NCBI RefSeq assembly: GCF_050920415.1
Contig: NZ_CP169309.1
Length of the DNA stretch: 64,000 nucleotides
Reading direction: 5' to 3' (one strand)
From: Escherichia coli
GTDB lineage: Bacteria; Pseudomonadota; Gammaproteobacteria; Enterobacterales; Enterobacteriaceae
The translations under genes and the position numbers were made by a program. A model generated the notes under the pieces. The model made no database searches. It saw only the letters and a list, made by a program, of their open reading frames with translations, and was not told the origin of the DNA. Of the stretch, positions 3,121 through 61,220 are shown one piece after another (position 1 is the stretch's first letter; each line of letters opens with the position of its first letter).

Positions 3121-3333
3121 GAAAATACCTTAGTGGGTAAACGCTTACGTTCTGTCAGTGTTACGGAAAATACCTGTTGGTTCAAGTGGCGACGTGTTTT
3201 CATCGTGGGAATGTGAGCCAAACGCAAATAAATAAGACAAAAAAAGAGATTGCAAACCTTTGGTTACACTTTGCGAAACGCTGTTGCGATTGACCGCTGG
3301 TTGCGTTTGGCTTCAGGTTGCTAAAGTGGTGGT

Positions 3334-3416
3334 CCCAGAGGTATTGATAGGTGAAGTCAACTTCGGGTTGAGCACATGAATTACACCAGCCTGCGCAGAT
3401 GCGCAGGTTTTTTTTT
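3334..3416 (+). ncRNA. omrB: OmrB small regulatory RNA
   Basis: Starts CCCAGAGGTATTGATAGGTGA, ends with hairpin CCTGCGCAGATGCGCAGG plus T9; shares 5' and 3' ends with the adjacent copy; lies between galR and aas, where I recall the OmrA/OmrB pair. Confidence 0.85.
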
Positions 3417-3530
3417 GCCGGCCATCAATCTGTAACAGTAACCGACAATTTACACACCTCGTTGCATTTCCCTTCATTCCTTTGCGTTTTCTCGCTGGCG
3501 AAGAGTCGTTGTGCAGACCACAATCAAGAT

Positions 3531-3618
3531 CCCAGAGGTATTGATTGGTGAGATTATTCGGTACGCTCTTCGTACCCTGTCTCTTGCACCAACCTGCGCG
3601 GATGCGCAGGTTTTTTTT
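3531..3618 (+). ncRNA. omrA: OmrA small regulatory RNA
   Basis: Starts CCCAGAGGTATTGATTGGTGA, ends with hairpin CCTGCGCGGATGCGCAGG plus T8; paralogous to the upstream copy. Confidence 0.85.
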
Positions 3619-3684
3619 CGCACCTAATTTACTGTCGCTCGCGTTCTTTATCTCGTGTAATCTCCCTCCATTCGCTTTTACTGA

Positions 3685-7051
<3,367 letters not shown>

Positions 7052-37702: not shown

Positions 37703-37779
<77 letters not shown>

Positions 37780-37812: not shown

Positions 37813-37889
<77 letters not shown>

Positions 37890-37922: not shown

Positions 37923-37999
<77 letters not shown>

Positions 38000-38032
38000 T
38001 CACCGTACTGCTTTACTTCATCAAATTTTAAT

Positions 38033-38109
<77 letters not shown>

Positions 38110-38317
38110 TCCGTGGATGCGCACTATACTCCGCTCGCGTTTTCATGCAACCTTTTTTTTACCCAGATCACGGATTTGGTATGATTTTGAGCAAAAACAA
38201 ATCACTAAAGCCTGTTTTTTGTGCAAAATTTGCGTCAGGGAGAGGCTGCTCATTTCATTAAACGCGGCGGTTTGTTATCTTCATTGCGCCTTATTTTTTA
38301 AACTGAAGAAGAGAACA

Positions 38318-39415
38318 ATGAAAGGACGTTGGGTAAAGTACCTTCTTATGGGCACGGTTGTGGCAATGCTTGCCGCCTGCTCTTCCAAACCAACCGATCG
38401 CGGACAGCAATATAAAGACGGGAAATTTACCCAGCCTTTCTCTCTGGTAAACCAGCCAGATGCCGTTGGCGCGCCAATTAACGCCGGTGATTTTGCCGAG
38501 CAAATTAACCATATCCGTACTTCGTCACCGCGTCTGTATGGCAACCAGAGTAATGTTTATAATGCGGTGCAGGAGTGGCTACGCGCAGGCGGTGATACCC
38601 GCAATATGCGTCAGTTCGGCATTGACGCCTGGCAGATGGAAGGTGCCGACAACTATGGCAACGTGCAGTTTACGGGCTATTACACGCCTGTCATTCAGGC
38701 GCGCCATACCCGTCAGGGCGAGTTCCAGTATCCTATTTACCGTATGCCGCCAAAACGTGGTCGTCTGCCGTCTCGTGCTGAGATCTACGCGGGAGCATTG
38801 AGCGATAAATACATCCTCGCTTACAGCAACTCTCTGATGGATAACTTCATTATGGATGTGCAGGGTAGCGGGTATATCGATTTTGGTGATGGCAGTCCGC
38901 TTAACTTCTTCAGCTATGCCGGAAAGAATGGTCATGCCTATCGCAGTATTGGTAAGGTGCTGATTGACCGTGGCGAAGTGAAAAAAGAAGATATGTCGAT
39001 GCAGGCGATTCGTCACTGGGGTGAAACACACAGTGAAGCCGAGGTTCGCGAGCTGCTGGAACAGAACCCGTCTTTCGTCTTCTTTAAACCGCAATCTTTT
39101 GCTCCGGTGAAAGGGGCAAGTGCGGTGCCGCTGGTTGGTCGCGCTTCAGTTGCGTCCGATCGTTCCATTATCCCGCCTGGTACAACTTTACTGGCAGAAG
39201 TGCCGCTGCTGGATAATAACGGCAAATTTAACGGTCAGTACGAACTGCGGCTGATGGTGGCGCTGGATGTCGGTGGTGCAATCAAAGGCCAACACTTCGA
39301 TATTTATCAAGGTATCGGGCCGGAAGCCGGACACCGCGCAGGTTGGTACAACCACTATGGACGTGTTTGGGTGCTGAAAACCGCCCCGGGCGCAGGTAAC
39401 GTCTTTAGCGGCTGA
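38318..39415 (+). CDS. mltA: Membrane-bound lytic murein transglycosylase A (lipoprotein)
   Basis: Start at ATG 38318 (MKGRWVKYLLMGTVVAMLAACSS lipobox); the 38036 track ORF is an extension through the tRNA genes. Confidence 0.93.
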   Translation: MKGRWVKYLLMGTVVAMLAACSSKPTDRGQQYKDGKFTQPFSLVNQPDAVGAPINAGDFAEQINHIRTSSPRLYGNQSNVYNAVQEWLRAGGDTRNMRQFGIDAWQMEGADNYGNVQFTGYYTPVIQARHTRQGEFQYPIYRMPPKRGRLPSRAEIYAGALSDKYILAYSNSLMDNFIMDVQGSGYIDFGDGSPLNFFSYAGKNGHAYRSIGKVLIDRGEVKKEDMSMQAIRHWGETHSEAEVRELLEQNPSFVFFKPQSFAPVKGASAVPLVGRASVASDRSIIPPGTTLLAEVPLLDNNGKFNGQYELRLMVALDVGGAIKGQHFDIYQGIGPEAGHRAGWYNHYGRVWVLKTAPGAGNVFSG

Positions 39416-39491
39416 TGTGTTATTCTGTATACCGTTTTGACGGATACGACAGGGTGAGGGATAACCTCGCCCTTTTTAATTCTGAGGTGCT

Positions 39492-40298
39492 ATGTCTGTG
39501 GTAATTAGTGATGCATGGCGTCAGCGTTTTGGTGGCACTGCGCGTCTGTATGGTGAAAAAGCGTTGCAACTGTTTGCTGATGCGCATATTTGTGTGGTCG
39601 GTATCGGTGGCGTCGGTTCCTGGGCGGCGGAAGCGCTGGCGCGTACGGGGATTGGCGCAATCACACTTATCGATATGGATGATGTGTGCGTCACTAATAC
39701 CAATCGGCAAATTCACGCGCTGCGAGATAACGTCGGGCTGGCCAAAGCGGAAGTAATGGCGGAGCGTATTCGCCAGATTAACCCGGAGTGCCGTGTAACG
39801 GTGGTAGATGACTTCGTGACGCCGGATAACGTAGCGCAATATATGAGTGCCGGTTATTCGTACGTGATTGATGCCATTGATAGTGTGCGACCCAAAGCGG
39901 CGCTGATTGCTTATTGTCGGCGCAATAAAATCCCTCTGGTCACGACTGGTGGTGCTGGTGGGCAGATTGATCCGACGCAGATTCAGGTTACCGATCTGGC
40001 GAAAACGATTCAGGACCCTCTGGCGGCGAAGTTGCGCGAGCGCCTGAAAAGCGATTTTGGCGTAGTGAAAAACAGCAAAGGTAAGCTCGGCGTGGATTGC
40101 GTGTTCTCTACCGAAGCGCTGGTGTACCCGCAGTCAGACGGTACGGTGTGCGCGATGAAAGCCACGGCAGAAGGGCCGAAGCGGATGGATTGTGCATCTG
40201 GATTTGGCGCGGCGACGATGGTGACCGCCACCTTTGGTTTTGTTGCGGTTTCTCATGCGTTGAGGAAGATGATGGTGAAAGCGGCGCGTCAGGGGTAA
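39492..40298 (+). CDS. tcdA: tRNA threonylcarbamoyladenosine dehydratase (ThiF/MoeB-like E1)
   Basis: 268 aa; Rossmann motif VVGIGGVGSWAAEALARTG. Confidence 0.9.
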   Translation: MSVVISDAWRQRFGGTARLYGEKALQLFADAHICVVGIGGVGSWAAEALARTGIGAITLIDMDDVCVTNTNRQIHALRDNVGLAKAEVMAERIRQINPECRVTVVDDFVTPDNVAQYMSAGYSYVIDAIDSVRPKAALIAYCRRNKIPLVTTGGAGGQIDPTQIQVTDLAKTIQDPLAAKLRERLKSDFGVVKNSKGKLGVDCVFSTEALVYPQSDGTVCAMKATAEGPKRMDCASGFGAATMVTATFGFVAVSHALRKMMVKAARQG

Positions 40299-40348
40299 AC
40301 AATCAGGTCGGATGCGACGTGAACGTCTTATCCGACCTGGTTTTGCGC

Positions 40349-40792
40349 TTAACCCTGCTTCGCCGCCGCGATAATCGCCTCGCTTAACGCATTCAACCCC
40401 TGACTGCGAGAGGCGCTAAGTTGCCCACGCAATCCCAGCTCATCAAACAATGCCAGCGGCGACTGTGCCTGCAATTCGGCGGCGGTTTTCCCCTCAACGG
40501 CAGTCAACAACACCGCCAGCAGGCCGCGCACAATGCGTCCTTCGCTGTCGCCAAAGAAATGCATCGTGCCGTTTTCAGCCACGGTATATCCCAGCCAGAC
40601 GCGGTTTTCGCATCCGGCGATCTCTTTAGCCTGCGCTTTTAACTCGTCTGGCAAAGCTGGAAGCTGTTTCCCCAACATAATTAGCTGACGATATTTGTCT
40701 TCCCATTGAGTCAACGGCGCGAAAGTTTCGTGTAACGTCTTTACGGTAACGGTTGTGCCGAACGGATGTCCGGCGAATTGCGGGTTCGTCAT
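40349..40792 (-). CDS. csdE: Sulfur acceptor protein (SufE-like)
   Basis: 147 aa; recognised as CsdE; adjacent to csdA. Confidence 0.9.
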
Positions 40793-41997
40793 TAATCCAC
40801 CAATAATTCCAGCGCACGGTCAACGGCATTCACCAGCGCATCCACATCACTCTTTGTATTATATGGCGCAAAAGAGGCGCGCAGTGTGCCGGTTACGCCT
40901 AATTCTGCCAGTAGCGGCTGAGCGCAATGCTGCCCGGCCCGCAGGGCAATGCCGTACTCCGCCAGCAGCGTCACCATATCGCTGTGATGAACGCCAGCAA
41001 AATCAAAGGCTAGCAGGCTGGAATCCTGGCTGCGGAATGAACGAAAGCCTGGACGTTTTGCCAGCGCCTCTTCTGCAATCGTCGCCAGGCTGCGACTCCA
41101 GCTTTCTGCCTGGTTGATATCGTAATCTGCCAGCCATTCCAGCGCCGCGCTTAACCCAATTACGCCAGCGACATTTGGCGTTCCTGCTTCCAGTTTCCAC
41201 GGCGCAGATTGAGTGATGAAGCCGTCAAAACTCACTTCGTGAACCATTTTGCCGCCGCCCAGCCAGGGCGACATTGCTTCCAGCAGTTCTGGTTTGCCGT
41301 AAAGTACGCCTATCCCTGTCGGGCCATACAGTTTGTGACCAGAGAAAGCGTAAAAATCAATATCCAGTTGCTGAACATCCGCGGGGAAATGCACCGCCCC
41401 CTGAGCACCATCAACCATCACCACCATCCCGGCTGAATGAGCAAAGGTAATCGCTCGTGCCAGATCCGGGCAACCGCCAGTGACGTTAGACATCTGGCCC
41501 AACGCCAGAATCCGACTATGGGGAGTAATCAGTTCAGGCAACAAATCGATATCTGGCAACCGCTGCGCATTAAGCGGCAATTTCACCACTTTGGCTCCGG
41601 TTTGTTGGGCGACCATCAGCCAGGGGACGAGGTTGGCGTGATGCTCTGCCACACTGACAATAATTTCATCGCCCGGTTGCAGACGCGGACGGGCATAGCA
41701 TTGCGCCACCATGTTGATGGATTCAGTGGTGCCACGCGTCCAGACGATAGTTTTGTCATCTGGTGCATTCAGTAATTGCGCCACTTTTTCCCGTGCAGCT
41801 TCGTAACGCGCGGTCAGGCGTTGGGCCTCGGCAAACTGACTACGATGGACGTTTCCGGCGCTCAGGCTGTAAAACTGTCGGGTTGCTTCAACCACGACTT
41901 CAGGTTTAAGCGCGGTCGCGGCACTGTCGAGATAGACGCCCGCATCCTGTAGCGCGGGAAACTGGGCGCGAAATTGCGCGGGATTAAAAACGTTCAT
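40792..41997 (-). CDS. csdA: Cysteine desulfurase / sulfinate desulfinase
   Basis: 401 aa from ATG at 41997 ([13 protein letters not shown]); PLP class V aminotransferase; track ORF has an upstream extension. Confidence 0.92.
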
Positions 41998-42188
41998 GGT
42001 ACTCCTCGGCTTGATGCACCGATCGTGACGCAAAATTCACTTTGATACAAGGAGAGTGCTAACCATCAGAATTATCTGGATATCCTGACGAAGCCGCGTA
42101 AGTAACATATGCTAAATAGTGTTAGGCGTTAATTTTAGCCTGTTAATCAATACTATTAAGATTTATTAATCGCTTTAAGGAGAAGATG

Positions 42189-42416
42189 ATGAAAAAGACT
42201 GCCGCAATTATTTCTGCCTGTATGCTGACTTTTGCCCTGAGCGCCTGTTCCGGTTCGAACTATGTGATGCACACCAATGACGGACGTACCATCGTCTCTG
42301 ACGGCAAACCACAGACTGATAACGATACCGGTATGATTTCGTATAAAGACGCTAATGGCAACAAACAGCAGATCAACCGTACCGACGTGAAAGAGATGGT
42401 CGAACTGGATCAGTAA
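42189..42416 (+). CDS. ygdI: Small lipoprotein (DUF903 family), paralog of YgdR
   Basis: 75 aa with lipobox LSAC; similar to the ORF at 8231-8449. Confidence 0.85.
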
Positions 42417-42432
42417 TTCGCGATCGCAAGGT

Positions 42433-42638
42433 AAAAAAAAGCACCGCAATTAGGCGGTGCTACATTAATCACTATGGACAGACAGGGTAAATGTACAGGA
42501 AGTGAAAAAAGGTAGCTTTGCTACCATGGTCTGAATCGCAGACCAATTGCAAACACAACAACACAACATCACAACCGTAAGCCAAAAGTTCACCAGAACA
42601 CGCATTCCGATAAAACTTTTCGTTCCGGCTCAGGAAGT
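42433..42638 (-). ncRNA. gcvB: GcvB small RNA
   Basis: Minus-strand sequence begins ACTTCCTGAGCCGGAACGAAAAG, contains the GT-rich region GTTGTGATGTTGTGTTGTTGTGTTTGCAATTGG, ends with terminator GCACCGCCTAATTGCGGTGC plus T8; divergent from gcvA. Confidence 0.88.
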
Positions 42639-42766
42639 GCCGCCACTATAGGTATTTGCTGGTAGAAGCTCAACGGACAATTTATAATGGCTCAGATTAA
42701 AAAAACTAATAGGTTACACAGTGTGATCTAATTGTTAAATTCATTTAACATCAAAGTTTAAAAGCC

Positions 42767-43684
42767 ATGTCTAAACGATTACCACCGCTAAATGCCTTAC
42801 GAGTTTTTGATGCCGCAGCACGCCATTTAAGTTTCACTCGCGCAGCAGAAGAGCTTTTTGTGACTCAGGCCGCAGTAAGTCATCAAATCAAGTCTCTTGA
42901 GGATTTTCTGGGGCTAAAACTGTTCCGCCGCCGTAATCGTTCACTCCTGCTGACCGAGGAAGGGCAAAGCTATTTCCTCGATATCAAAGAGATATTTTCG
43001 CAATTAACCGAAGCGACACGTAAACTCCAGGCCCGTAGCGCCAAGGGGGCGTTGACGGTCAGTTTACTCCCCAGTTTCGCCATTCATTGGTTGGTTCCAC
43101 GACTTTCCAGCTTTAATTCAGCTTATCCGGGAATTGACGTTCGCATCCAGGCGGTTGATCGTCAGGAAGATAAGCTGGCGGATGATGTTGACGTGGCGAT
43201 ATTCTATGGTCGGGGCAACTGGCCGGGGCTACGGGTGGAAAAACTTTACGCCGAATATTTATTGCCGGTGTGTTCGCCGCTACTGCTGACAGGCGATAAA
43301 CCCTTGAAGACCCCGGAAGACTTGGCTAAACATACGTTATTACATGATGCGTCTCGCCGTGACTGGCAGACATATACTCGCCAATTGGGGTTAAATCATA
43401 TCAACGTTCAGCAAGGACCAATATTTAGTCATAGCGCCATGGTGCTGCAAGCGGCTATCCACGGGCAGGGAGTGGCGCTGGCGAATAACGTGATGGCGCA
43501 ATCTGAAATTGAAGCCGGACGTCTTGTTTGCCCGTTTAATGATGTTCTGGTCAGTAAAAACGCTTTTTATCTGGTTTGTCATGACAGCCAGGCAGAACTG
43601 GGTAAAATAGCCGCCTTTCGCCAATGGATCCTGGCGAAAGCCGCTGCTGAACAAGAAAAATTCCGCTTTCGTTATGAACAATAA
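42767..43684 (+). CDS. gcvA: Glycine cleavage system transcriptional regulator (LysR family)
   Basis: 305 aa; N-terminal LysR-type HTH; recognised as GcvA. Confidence 0.95.
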   Translation: MSKRLPPLNALRVFDAAARHLSFTRAAEELFVTQAAVSHQIKSLEDFLGLKLFRRRNRSLLLTEEGQSYFLDIKEIFSQLTEATRKLQARSAKGALTVSLLPSFAIHWLVPRLSSFNSAYPGIDVRIQAVDRQEDKLADDVDVAIFYGRGNWPGLRVEKLYAEYLLPVCSPLLLTGDKPLKTPEDLAKHTLLHDASRRDWQTYTRQLGLNHINVQQGPIFSHSAMVLQAAIHGQGVALANNVMAQSEIEAGRLVCPFNDVLVSKNAFYLVCHDSQAELGKIAAFRQWILAKAAAEQEKFRFRYEQ

Positions 43685-43702
43685 TTTACGTAGGGTACGA
43701 CC

Positions 43703-44098
43703 ATGACCAGCCGTTTTATGCTGATTTTCGCCGCCATTAGCGGCTTCATTTTTGTGGCGCTGGGCGCTTTTGGCGCGCATGTGTTAAGTAAAACCATGGG
43801 GGCCGTTGAGATGGGCTGGATCCAGACCGGTCTCGAATACCAGGCGTTCCATACGCTGGCGATCTTAGGTCTGGCGGTGGCAATGCAGCGTCGCATCAGT
43901 ATCTGGTTTTACTGGAGTAGCGTTTTCCTTGCGTTAGGCACGGTGCTGTTCAGCGGCAGCCTTTATTGCCTGGCGCTGTCCCATCTGCGTTTGTGGGCAT
44001 TTGTCACACCGGTTGGCGGCGTGAGCTTCCTCGCGGGCTGGGCGTTAATGTTAGTTGGTGCTATCCGTTTAAAGCGCAAGGGCGTAAGTCATGAATAA
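43703..44098 (+). CDS. ygdD: DUF423 inner membrane protein
   Basis: 131 aa hydrophobic; conserved position before rlmM. Confidence 0.85.
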
Positions 44099-45191
44099 GG
44101 TTGTATTGCTGTGCCGTCCGGGCTTTGAAAAAGAGTGCGCCGCAGAAATTACCGATAAAGCCGGCCAGCGGGAAATTTTCGGTTTTGCCCGCGTGAAAGA
44201 GAATGCGGGTTATGTCATTTATGAATGTTATCAACCTGATGATGGCGATAAGTTAATCCGTGAGCTGCCGTTCAGTTCATTAATTTTTGCCCGCCAGTGG
44301 TTTGTGGTCGGGGAACTCCTGCAGCATTTGCCGCCAGAAGATCGTATTACCCCCATTGTCGGCATGTTACAGGGCGTAGTAGAGAAGGGCGGTGAACTGC
44401 GTGTTGAAGTTGCCGATACCAACGAAAGCAAAGAGTTGCTGAAATTCTGCCGTAAATTCACCGTGCCGCTACGCGCTGCCTTGCGCGATGCCGGGGTGCT
44501 GGCGAACTATGAAACGCCGAAGCGTCCGGTTGTGCATGTATTCTTTATTGCACCAGGTTGCTGCTATACCGGTTACTCATACAGCAACAATAATTCGCCG
44601 TTCTATATGGGCATTCCGCGCCTGAAATTTCCGGCAGATGCGCCGAGTCGTTCCACGCTCAAACTGGAAGAGGCATTTCATGTGTTTATTCCGGCGGATG
44701 AGTGGGATGAACGTCTGGCGAACGGGATGTGGGCGGTGGATTTAGGTGCTTGCCCAGGCGGCTGGACCTACCAACTGGTGAAGCGCAACATGTGGGTATA
44801 TTCCGTTGATAACGGCCCGATGGCACAAAGCCTGATGGATACCGGGCAGGTGACGTGGCTGCGGGAAGACGGTTTCAAATTCCGTCCGACACGCAGCAAT
44901 ATCTCCTGGATGGTATGCGATATGGTTGAAAAGCCGGCGAAAGTTGCGGCATTGATGGCGCAGTGGCTGGTTAATGGCTGGTGCCGTGAAACCATTTTCA
45001 ACCTCAAACTGCCGATGAAAAAACGCTACGAAGAAGTGTCACATAATCTGGCGTATATTCAGGCACAGCTTGATGAACATGGCATAAATGCTCAGATTCA
45101 GGCGCGACAGTTGTATCACGATCGTGAAGAAGTGACGGTGCATGTCCGCCGCATCTGGGCTGCGGTGGGAGGCCGTCGCGACGAGCGATAA
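44091..45191 (+). CDS. rlmM: 23S rRNA 2'-O-ribose C2498 methyltransferase
   Basis: 366 aa; recognised as RlmM (YgdE). Confidence 0.9.
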
Positions 45192-45234
45192 CTAACAAGG
45201 CCGGGGCGTCGTCTCCGGCCTGCTACCCTTTCCG

Positions 45235-45966
45235 TCAGGCTGTTACCAAAGAAGCCGCAACCTGGCGCTCATCAGAAATAATGTGCGTGACCTCATCCAG
45301 ATGCCCGATGCGGGCTTCCCCTGAACGATTAAATTTACTTTTATCAATCAATAACAACGATTGCGCGGCACGTTTTAATAGCATCGATTTGTAATCAGCG
45401 TTGATGGCATTGGAGTCCCACAGTGCACCGCTGCTATCGATCCCTTCACAAGAAAAAATAAACAGATCGATTTCCAGCGATTTAAGTTGGGAAATCAGCG
45501 AGGGATTGACGTAACAGCCATATTTGCGCTCAAGTGTGCCGCCGGAACTGATCAGTTGAATGCGTTCACGTTTACCGAGTTCATGGCAAATCGGATGGCT
45601 ATTGGTGAAGACCTGGATGTTGATGTCAGGCAACTGGCGTGCCAGATACCAGCAGGTTGAACTGGCGTCTAAGGCTATCACCATCCCTTCTTCAATCCAC
45701 GCGAGCGCCTCGCGCGCGATATCTGCTTTATGCGCATAATGGCTTTTCAGCCGGATGTGAAAGGGATCGCCACTGTCTTGATTTTGACGGTGGATATATT
45801 TAGCGCGCCCATGATTGCGCAGAATTTTACCCTGCGTCTGTAATTCATTGAGATCGCGACGAATGGTTTCTTTACTGACCTTTAGCTGTTCAGAGAGAGC
45901 TTCCGTGGTCAGGCTGGTATGGTTCAGCAGCAGGTCGACTATCGCTTGCTGGCGTGCCGCTTTCAT
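45235..45966 (-). CDS. fucR: L-fucose operon activator (DeoR family)
   Basis: 243 aa from ATG at 45966 (MKAARQQAIVDLL); DeoR HTH. Confidence 0.92.
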   Translation of the reverse strand: MKAARQQAIVDLLLNHTSLTTEALSEQLKVSKETIRRDLNELQTQGKILRNHGRAKYIHRQNQDSGDPFHIRLKSHYAHKADIAREALAWIEEGMVIALDASSTCWYLARQLPDINIQVFTNSHPICHELGKRERIQLISSGGTLERKYGCYVNPSLISQLKSLEIDLFIFSCEGIDSSGALWDSNAINADYKSMLLKRAAQSLLLIDKSKFNRSGEARIGHLDEVTHIISDERQVAASLVTA

Positions 45967-46023
45967 ATTTTTCACCCCATCATTCGATAACCGCCCGCGT
46001 CATGCGGGCGTACCGGTATGAGA

Positions 46024-46446
46024 TTACGGTGTTACCCCTTTTTTTAAAAGAATATTCCCATACTTCGCTCGTTCGCCTGTGATAACGATCGCAAAGGCTT
46101 TTTGCGCCCGCTCATAAAACGCAAAACGATTGATGCGGATGATGTCAGGACAGGGGGCTTGTAGTGAAAGCGCATTACGATAACGTCGTTCTACTTCAGG
46201 ATCGAGAGTGTCACCTTCTACCGCCGCCATCATCACCAGCGGCGGTGCATAACTGTCCAGTTCAAATAACGGGATTATCGCCTGGAGCAAGTCGCTCACC
46301 AACAGGCCATCAGCGCGGATCACCTGCGGTCCCATCGAATGGGCGGGAAAGTGAGCATCGGAAAAAATAATTTCATCTCCATGTCCCATCTCTGCCAGCA
46401 CTTTCAATAGTTCGGGGGAAATTAACGGCGAAATTGTTTTCAGCAT
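46024..46446 (-). CDS. fucU: L-fucose mutarotase
   Basis: 140 aa; recognised as FucU. Confidence 0.93.
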
Positions 46447-46447
46447 T

Positions 46448-47896
46448 TCACACTTCCTCTATAAATTCAGGTTCAGTTTGTGGGTAGAAATAACGGTACT
46501 GATAATGAATCTGCGCGCGAGCTTCTTCCGGGCTGTTAAATTCCCCTACGCCATACCAACCGAACAGCGCAGCTCCTGCGACGGTCGTTTCGGCGTCGTC
46601 GAGAACTTTTACCGGAATATCAAGCATATTGGCTTTAATCTGATTCCACAATGTGTTGCGACTTCCTCCACCTACTAACAATAATTCAGAGGCTTTAAAG
46701 TGCCCGATTTTTTCCAGCATCTGTAGATTGCGCTGTAATTGCGCGGTTAACCCTTCCAGCGCCGCGCGATAGAAATGTCCGCGCGTGGTATTGAGCGTCA
46801 CTCCTTGCCAGCCAGCGTTCTGACACGACAATAAATCACACTGCATTTTCACACCATCCGTACCCGGGGGGATCAGACGAGCTTCATCAATCAACATTTG
46901 CCAGGGCGTTTCAGTAGTCCAGAACAGTTTTCTCACCCATTCCAGCACGCCGGATGCCAGCCATTGCATACCGGGGTTATACAATCCTGCCTGGCTATCC
47001 AGTTCGCAGGTCGAACCGGCGTACTGACTTAGCAGTGAAGTATCAACCTGCGTACTGCGGACCATTAAAATTTCCCAGGTACCGGAAGAGAGCACGGGTT
47101 CATTTTGTTCGGCACCAGCGCCAAAAAGGGCGAACTGGGTATCGTGACCTGCGGAAATCACCGGTATGCCAACGGGTAAGCCGAGCATTGCTGCGGCGCT
47201 GTTCTGTAGCGTACCTATCTGTTCACCCGCTTCCACCAGACGAGGGAAGAGACGGCGTGGAATACCGGTGGCTTGTAAAATTTGCGGACTGAAATCGCGT
47301 TGCTGGATATCCAGCATCTGGCTGGTTCCGGCCATCGTGATATCAGTAGTCAATTCGCCGGTTAAACGGTGGTTAATCAGCGACGAAATAAAGAGCCAGG
47401 CGTGCGCGCGTTCCAGCAGTTGTGGATGATTTTCTTTCAACCACACCAATTTATATAACGTATTGAAACTAAAGGCTCCGACGCCAGAAATAGCCTGCAA
47501 CTGCTGTGCGGAGATCAACCGTTCAATATTGTCCATTACCGCTGCTGTTCGCGGACATTTCCAGCTAATGATCGGATAGAGCAGATTGCCTTGCTTATCT
47601 ACCAGAGCGCCATCCACACCAAAGGTGGTGACGGCGATACCGCGGATGTGGCATTCAGTCAGTTCACTATTGATTTGCCGACAGCAATCAGCAAAGCGTT
47701 GCAAAATGGCGTCTAAAGACCACTGGTGCCAGGTGTTGTTTTCCATCGCGATATCGCTGGCATTAGGCGTTGAGGCGCGGGCAACAATTTTTCCCTGCCG
47801 ATTAACCGCGATGGCCCTGACATTGGTTGCGCCACAGTCGAGTACCAGGATAACTTCTTGTTTCATAATCGCTCCTGCAATATAGCCGGATAACAT
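46448..47896 (-). CDS. fucK: L-fuculokinase
   Basis: 482 aa FGGY kinase; an alternative start MKQEV at 47866 is possible. Confidence 0.92.
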
Positions 47897-60809: not shown

Positions 60810-61177
60810 GTCGACAGGGAGTCAGACAACGAAGTGAACATCAGGATGATGACACTTCTGAAGGACACACCAGGAGGGTGTTTCAGGGAAAGGCTTCTGG
60901 ATGAAGCGAAGAGGATGACGCAGGACGCGTTAAAGGACACCTCCAGGATGGAGAATGAGAACCGGTCAGGATGATTCGGTGGGTCAGGAAGGCCAGGGAC
61001 ACTTCAGGATGAAGTATCACATCGGGGTGGTGTGAGCAGGAAGCAATAGTTCAGGATGAACGATTGGCCGCAAGGCCAGAGGAAAAGTTGTCAAGGATGA
61101 GCAGGGAGCAACAAAAGTAGCTGGAATGCTGCGAAACGAACCGGGAGCACTGTGAATACAGTGCTCCCTTTTTTTAT
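60810..61177 (+). ncRNA. csrB: CsrB sRNA (CsrA-sequestering)
   Basis: Begins GTCGACAGGGAGTCAGACAACGAAGTGAACATCAGGATGATGACAC; at least eight CAGGATG/AGGATGA-type motifs counted by eye; ends with hairpin GGGAGCACTGTGAATACAGTGCTCCC plus T7; between syd and yqcC. Confidence 0.9.
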
Positions 61178-61220
61178 TCCTGCTATCCTTCGCGGCAGTT
61201 TTTCTTATTGAGGTTGCTTT

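Follow-up and report, generated by a model that had tools for sequence, protein, structure and literature searches.

A minus-strand element between ygdI and gcvA in Escherichia coli is the canonical small RNA gene gcvB

What is encoded on the minus strand between ygdI and gcvA in this Escherichia coli DNA, and does it depart in any way from what is known of this locus? A sequence-only reading of the region had placed the small RNA (sRNA) GcvB on the minus strand at 42433-42638. Coordinates are those of the window, by which we mean the whole 64,000-nucleotide stretch of DNA that was analyzed. We scanned positions 38000..47000, and then the whole 64-kb window, with Rfam 15 and obtained a match to RF00022 (GcvB) on the minus strand at 42433..42638, exactly where the sRNA had been placed. 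The absence of a covariance-model match was to count against the claim, and the outcome was the opposite: the match scores 199 bits against a gathering score of 42 (E 1.6e-47) and is untruncated, spanning model positions 1-204 of 204. The curated ncRNA gcvB of K-12 MG1655 (b4443, at 2942696..2942901 of that genome, flanked by gcvA and ygdI and annotated as 'small regulatory RNA GcvB') is identical to the window element at 206 of 206 nt. Because the full-model RF00022 score lies above the gathering threshold and the sequence is identical to that of the characterized K-12 gcvB, we assign the element to the GcvB family. It is virtually certain that 42433..42638 (-) is Escherichia coli gcvB, encoding the 206-nt small RNA GcvB, whose Hfq dependence we take from the literature. 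No result of the present analysis speaks against this identification. Our analysis confirms that the feature is the canonical, already known GcvB sRNA, with its usual sequence and its usual context, and that it is neither strain specific nor novel.

The features of the locus are listed in Table 1. Nucleotide n of GcvB corresponds to window coordinate 42638 minus (n - 1). The 5' end had been recognized correctly: ACUUCCUGAGCCGG begins at 42638, which is both position 1 of the Rfam model and nt 1 of K-12 b4443.

Table 1. Features of the gcvB locus, in window coordinates.
Feature	Coordinates	Strand	Description	Basis
gcvA	42767..43684	+	LysR-type activator of gcvB, divergent; ATG 128 nt from gcvB 5' end	ORF, RefSeq annotation of identical locus
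IR1	42696..42710	.	Putative GcvA binding box ATTAAAAAAACTAAT (ATTA-N7-TAAT, includes CTAAT); centre 42703, -65 from gcvB 5' end	Pattern match
IR2	42674..42688	.	Putative weak GcvA half-site CGGACAATTTATAAT; centre -43, beside -35 hexamer	Position from PMC5002191
gcvB promoter	42645..42673	-	Sigma-70-like: -35 TTGAGC 42673..42668, 17-nt spacer, -10 TATAGT 42650..42645	Consensus scan
gcvB	42433..42638	-	206-nt GcvB sRNA; 5' end 42638, 3' end 42433	RF00022 and b4443 identity
SL1	42578..42632	-	5' stem-loop, GcvB nt 7-61	Minimum-free-energy fold and alignment
R1	42549..42576	-	G/U-rich principal seed, GcvB nt 63-90, GGUUGUGAUGUUGUGUUGUUGUGUUUGC	Base composition, conservation
SL2	42527..42545	-	Hairpin, GcvB nt 94-112	Folding
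t1	42505..42525	-	Internal Rho-independent terminator: hairpin GGUAGCAAAGCUACC nt 114-128 (42525..42511) and U6 nt 129-134	Terminator scan
R2	42491..42504	-	Conserved seed core CACUUCCUGUACAU, GcvB nt 135-148	Conservation
R3	42468..42485	-	Seed, GcvB nt 154-171	Conservation, published positions
t2	42433..42461	-	Final Rho-independent terminator: hairpin AGCACCGCCUAAUUGCGGUGCU nt 178-199 (42461..42440) and U tail	Terminator scan
ygdI	42189..42416	+	Lipoprotein gene, convergent with gcvB; stop codon 16 nt from gcvB 3' end	ORF, RefSeq annotation

The element was also said to lie between ygdI and a divergent gcvA. The open reading frames and the RefSeq annotation of an identical locus bear this out, with ygdI at 42189..42416 (+) and gcvA at 42767..43684 (+). 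On the ygdI side, the terminator scan found no plus-strand intrinsic terminator around 42416..42461. Transcripts of ygdI may therefore run into the gcvB t2 hairpin, or may use this hairpin without a U tract.

A GT-rich target-binding region was part of the original description, and we find it as R1: GcvB nt 63-90, at 42576..42549, reach up to 96% G+U in a 25-nt window and appear as a CA-rich run when read on the plus strand. The single-stranded state of R1 is predicted, the region being unpaired in the centroid structure and partly paired in the minimum-free-energy fold. The RNA as a whole folds at -62.1 kcal/mol (z = -3.6), a value equalled by none of 200 shuffled sequences.

Both t1 and t2 were found on the gcvB strand by the terminator scan. 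The terminator that had been claimed is t2: an 8-bp hairpin, six of its pairs G-C, occupies 42461..42440, and a U8 tail continues to 42433. The second, internal terminator t1 (42525..42511 and U6) had gone unmentioned, which leaves the GcvB claim unaffected. A stop at t1 would, from its position in the sequence, yield a short form of GcvB of about 130-134 nt. The ~200-nt form is the main species on later northern blots, and for this reason we do not rely on the t1/t2 ratio of 90% to 10% found in the literature. This ratio comes from PMC1557403, citing Urbanowski 2000, according to which ~90% of E. coli gcvB transcripts end at t1 and 10% at t2; the same paper reports functional t1 and t2 terminators in E. 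coli and Y. pestis.

Upstream of the RNA, the hexamers of the gcvB promoter match the consensus at 9 of 12 positions, and the -10 hexamer ends 7 nt before the start of the RNA. That this promoter is used in vivo is stated in the legend to Fig. 1 of PMC1557403, citing Urbanowski 2000. We searched 42640-42766 for the GcvA site, as the sequence-only reading had proposed, and found ATTA-N7-TAAT at 42696..42710, a match whose midpoint falls at -65 relative to the gcvB 5' end. CTAAT and ATTA-n7-TAAT are the conserved GcvA motifs (PMC5002191). The ATTA-N7-TAAT pattern, which is not very specific by itself, occurs three times in the 64 kb (IR1 among them) against 0.77 expected; the putative assignment of IR1 is carried by its exact position and its conservation. 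The same paper describes two inverted repeats, IR1 with its centre at -65 relative to the gcvB start and IR2, called the least conserved motif, with its centre at -43; it gives 48 bp of the gcvA-gcvB intergenic region as protected by GcvA. In the window, CGGACAATTTATAAT resembles the motif in its right half only (ATAAT compared with CTAAT). This fits the published description of IR2, which we infer to be a putative site. Across ten homologous loci, the -10 hexamer is invariant and the -35 hexamer nearly so, and the IR1 core is kept out to Yersinia and Photorhabdus.

We compared the 1.5-kb ygdI-gcvA block of the window with K-12 and counted 30 differences, none of which falls in gcvB. Two are intergenic, ygdI has one and gcvA has 27. 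The two intergenic differences are SNPs at window positions 42719 and 42762, within the 128 nt that separate gcvA from gcvB. In gcvA, 27 of 918 nt differ (2.9%) and 26 of these changes are synonymous, so that the GcvA protein shows a single, conservative difference, D in the window for E in K-12 at residue 177 (E177D). Compared with 27/918 in gcvA, the 0/206 differences in gcvB and 2/128 in the intergenic region point to a very strong constraint on the entire RNA sequence.

One may ask whether the differences from K-12, namely the two intergenic SNPs and the 27 changed nucleotides of gcvA, mark a gcvB that is decayed or non-functional, for example silenced through mutations in its promoter or its regulator. 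Natural disruption of gcvB does exist elsewhere, as in E. coli OkiPb01677, where ISVsa5 is inserted after nt 125. For the window, however, we rejected this reading as exceedingly improbable. The RNA is identical to that of K-12 at every one of its 206 nt, the promoter and the GcvA box are intact, neither SNP touching the -35 or -10 hexamer, IR1 or IR2, and the GcvA protein is near-identical. Furthermore, other sequenced E. coli strains carry the 901-nt locus without a single difference. That the SNPs at 42719 and 42762 alter the expression of gcvA or gcvB would be a lesser, very unlikely alternative.

We scanned a collection of species-representative genomes (298 Gb) for the R2 14-mer CACTTCCTGTACAT, which returned at least 120 loci. 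A 14-mer is too short for a collection of 298 Gb, and most of the matches listed are chance occurrences in unrelated phyla. Rescanning 18 candidate loci with Rfam left ten true GcvB loci, scoring 154-198 bits, from E. albertii, Citrobacter werkmanii, Enterobacter cloacae, three other Enterobacter species, Superficieibacter electus, Yersinia artesiana and two Photorhabdus species. We left out a Yersinia aldovae locus (L014) and a Pseudidiomarina locus, both of which carry the 14-mer and have no GcvB Rfam match. Five loci of Candidatus Enterovibrio escacola (L060-L064, on five contigs of one genome) were left out on the same grounds; these copies may belong to a repeated element that contains CACTTCCTGTACAT by chance. 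A divergent gcvA was found at a distance of 122-129 nt in all eight related loci with enough flanking sequence, and ygdI is located downstream in eight of the ten.

The window sequence and the ten homologues were aligned, giving 11 sequences. Within this alignment, GcvB nt 72-91 are invariant except for nt 78, and R3 is invariant throughout. R2 is invariant in all 11 sequences as well, which is a consequence of selection because the loci were retrieved through an exact R2 14-mer. The sequence of SL1, on the other hand, varies widely, and six pairs of its inner helix are changed on both sides. In the consensus structure, 95.7% of the cells are in standard pairs, compared with 34-43% after displacement of the partners by 1-3 columns. 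Both sides are changed in seven pairs, and one of 500 shuffles reached the covariation score of the 11-sequence alignment (0.120). The t1 helix is conserved, with one compensatory pair, and the t2 stem is invariant across genera. Taken from this alignment, covariation argues for the predicted secondary structure of GcvB mainly in SL1. The two predicted R2-R3 helices never vary and thus hold no structural information; their invariance fits a role as seed sequence. We note that the consensus computed with MAFFT and RNAalifold missed SL2 because in Yersinia and Photorhabdus its 3' arm sits one column out of register. When the 11 sequences were folded singly, every one of them formed SL2 as a hairpin of 6-8 bp (-7.7 to -10.7 kcal/mol) despite the sequence changes.

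The conservation pattern also bears on a possible protein product. GcvB contains a 46-codon open reading frame with an ATG start at 42605..42465 (-), corresponding to GcvB nt 34-174 (MRVLVNFWLTVVMLCCCVCNWSAIQTMVAKLPFFTSCTFTLSVHSD), and its translation would make the locus the source of a small protein or of a dual-function RNA. E. albertii, Citrobacter werkmanii and Enterobacter sp. BIGb0383 keep the whole frame, with 1-4 residues replaced. However, indels break or alter it in E. cloacae, Enterobacter Ag1, Superficieibacter and Enterobacter Bisph1, and Yersinia and Photorhabdus lack its ATG as well as 7 nt that are present in E. coli. No Shine-Dalgarno sequence precedes the frame (GAACGAAAAGUUUUAUCGGAAUG), its AUG is buried in the SL1 hairpin, and conservation tracks the seeds and stems of the RNA rather than codon positions. 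We therefore rejected the small-protein reading of the 46-aa frame, whose start codon lies within SL1 and which is neither conserved nor preceded by a Shine-Dalgarno sequence, and we regard a coding function of the locus as highly implausible. Low-level translation of the frame in Escherichia and Citrobacter is hardly any more credible; if it did take place, GcvB would be a dual-function RNA in Escherichia and Citrobacter only.

The gcvB gene is close to universal among the complete genomes of the species. The 901-nt stretch 42100..43000 is 100% identical in two complete E. coli chromosomes and is covered over at least 80% of its length in 5423 of 5426 complete E. coli genomes. The gene itself is present in 5425 of these 5426 genomes, with at least 99% identity in 5389, and a gcvB match is absent altogether from one. 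In the natural isolate OkiPb01677 (NZ_AP042483.1), gcvB is split after nt 125 by the IS4-like element ISVsa5 (locus L123, 3001..4560, with the transposase at 3233..4441), which parts R1 and t1 from R2, R3 and t2. We discounted plasmid-borne copies: one place labelled 'plasmid' and nine PLSDB records (H38-H46) measure 0.57 to 5.4 Mb and seem to be chromosomes, or large replicons resembling chromosomes.

Most RefSeq (PGAP) records of E. coli have no feature at the gcvB locus, and the K-12 reference has one. The gene is under-annotated outside the reference strain. The value of the present identification is one of annotation only: GcvB is a master regulator that acts post-transcriptionally on amino-acid transport and metabolism, and labelling gcvB in the window is correct and useful, and it opens no new question.

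Some other RNA genes were recorded in the window. Four tandem initiator tRNA-Met(CAT) genes are arranged on the minus strand with a period of 110 nt (37703-37779, 37813-37889, 37923-37999 and 38033-38109). K-12 MG1655 has three such genes at the corresponding locus (metZ, metW and metV), compared with four in the window, and the tRNA-Met array therefore varies in copy number. The stretch examined in E. albertii contains two initiator tRNA-Met genes, and those of Citrobacter and Enterobacter sp. BIGb0383 contain three. A full-length CsrB sRNA lies at 60819..61178 (+) (RF00018, 380.9 bits, E 8.9e-111), and two adjacent sRNA genes of the OmrA/OmrB family were found at 3334..3415 (+) and 3531..3618 (+) (RF00079, 86.1 and 96.6 bits).

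From the literature, the regulation of gcvB in the window would be as follows. When glycine is available, GcvA, encoded divergently 128 nt away, would activate the sigma-70 promoter of gcvB through the ATTA-N7-TAAT box at -65; together with GcvR, GcvA would instead bring about repression. In a fusion in E. coli, activation of gcvB by GcvA is about 400-fold, with glycine inducing and GcvR needed for repression (PMC1557403). Transcripts would be either about 130 nt long, ending at the internal t1, or 206 nt long, ending at t2. GcvB depends on Hfq and represses the mRNAs of transport and biosynthesis genes for amino acids and peptides (PMC9299463). The t2 hairpin with its U tail and the internal U-rich stretches of the RNA are compatible with an Hfq-dependent, trans-acting sRNA.

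Among the many transport and biosynthesis mRNAs expected to pair with GcvB are dppA, oppA, cycA, gdhA and phoP. Pairing with them would occur chiefly through the single-stranded, G/U-rich R1 and additionally through R2 and R3, and it would block translation initiation and promote decay of the mRNA. R1 is the main pairing region, used for most targets, R2 is highly conserved and used for cycA, and the targets of R3 include phoP, gdhA, cstA and map (PMC9299463). In the window, bases 156, 160 and 162 of R3 are G, G and C, the same as at the positions mutated in that study.

The closest known system is the K-12 locus itself, which has the same 206-nt sequence, the same neighbours, the same distance of 128 nt to gcvA, the same promoter hexamers and GcvA box and the same two terminators. 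All differences lie outside the RNA (the SNPs at 42719 and 42762, the 26 synonymous changes in gcvA and E177D). The GcvB orthologues of Salmonella, Yersinia and Photorhabdus share the order SL1, R1, SL2, t1, R2/R3 and t2, together with a divergent gcvA and invariant R2 and R3. For Y. pestis GcvB, regulation by GcvA and GcvR has been demonstrated (PMC1557403). Unlike the RNA of the window, GcvB of Yersinia and Photorhabdus has an R1 linker that is 7 nt shorter and an SL1 whose sequence is largely different, with compensatory pairs; in Photorhabdus the RNA is 198 nt long. Outside the family, oxyR-oxyS is arranged alike, with a LysR-type regulator divergent from the sRNA gene that it activates by way of an inverted repeat close to the -35 hexamer (PMC5002191). 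It differs from gcvA-gcvB in its regulator, its signal (peroxide, not glycine), its RNA family and its regulon.
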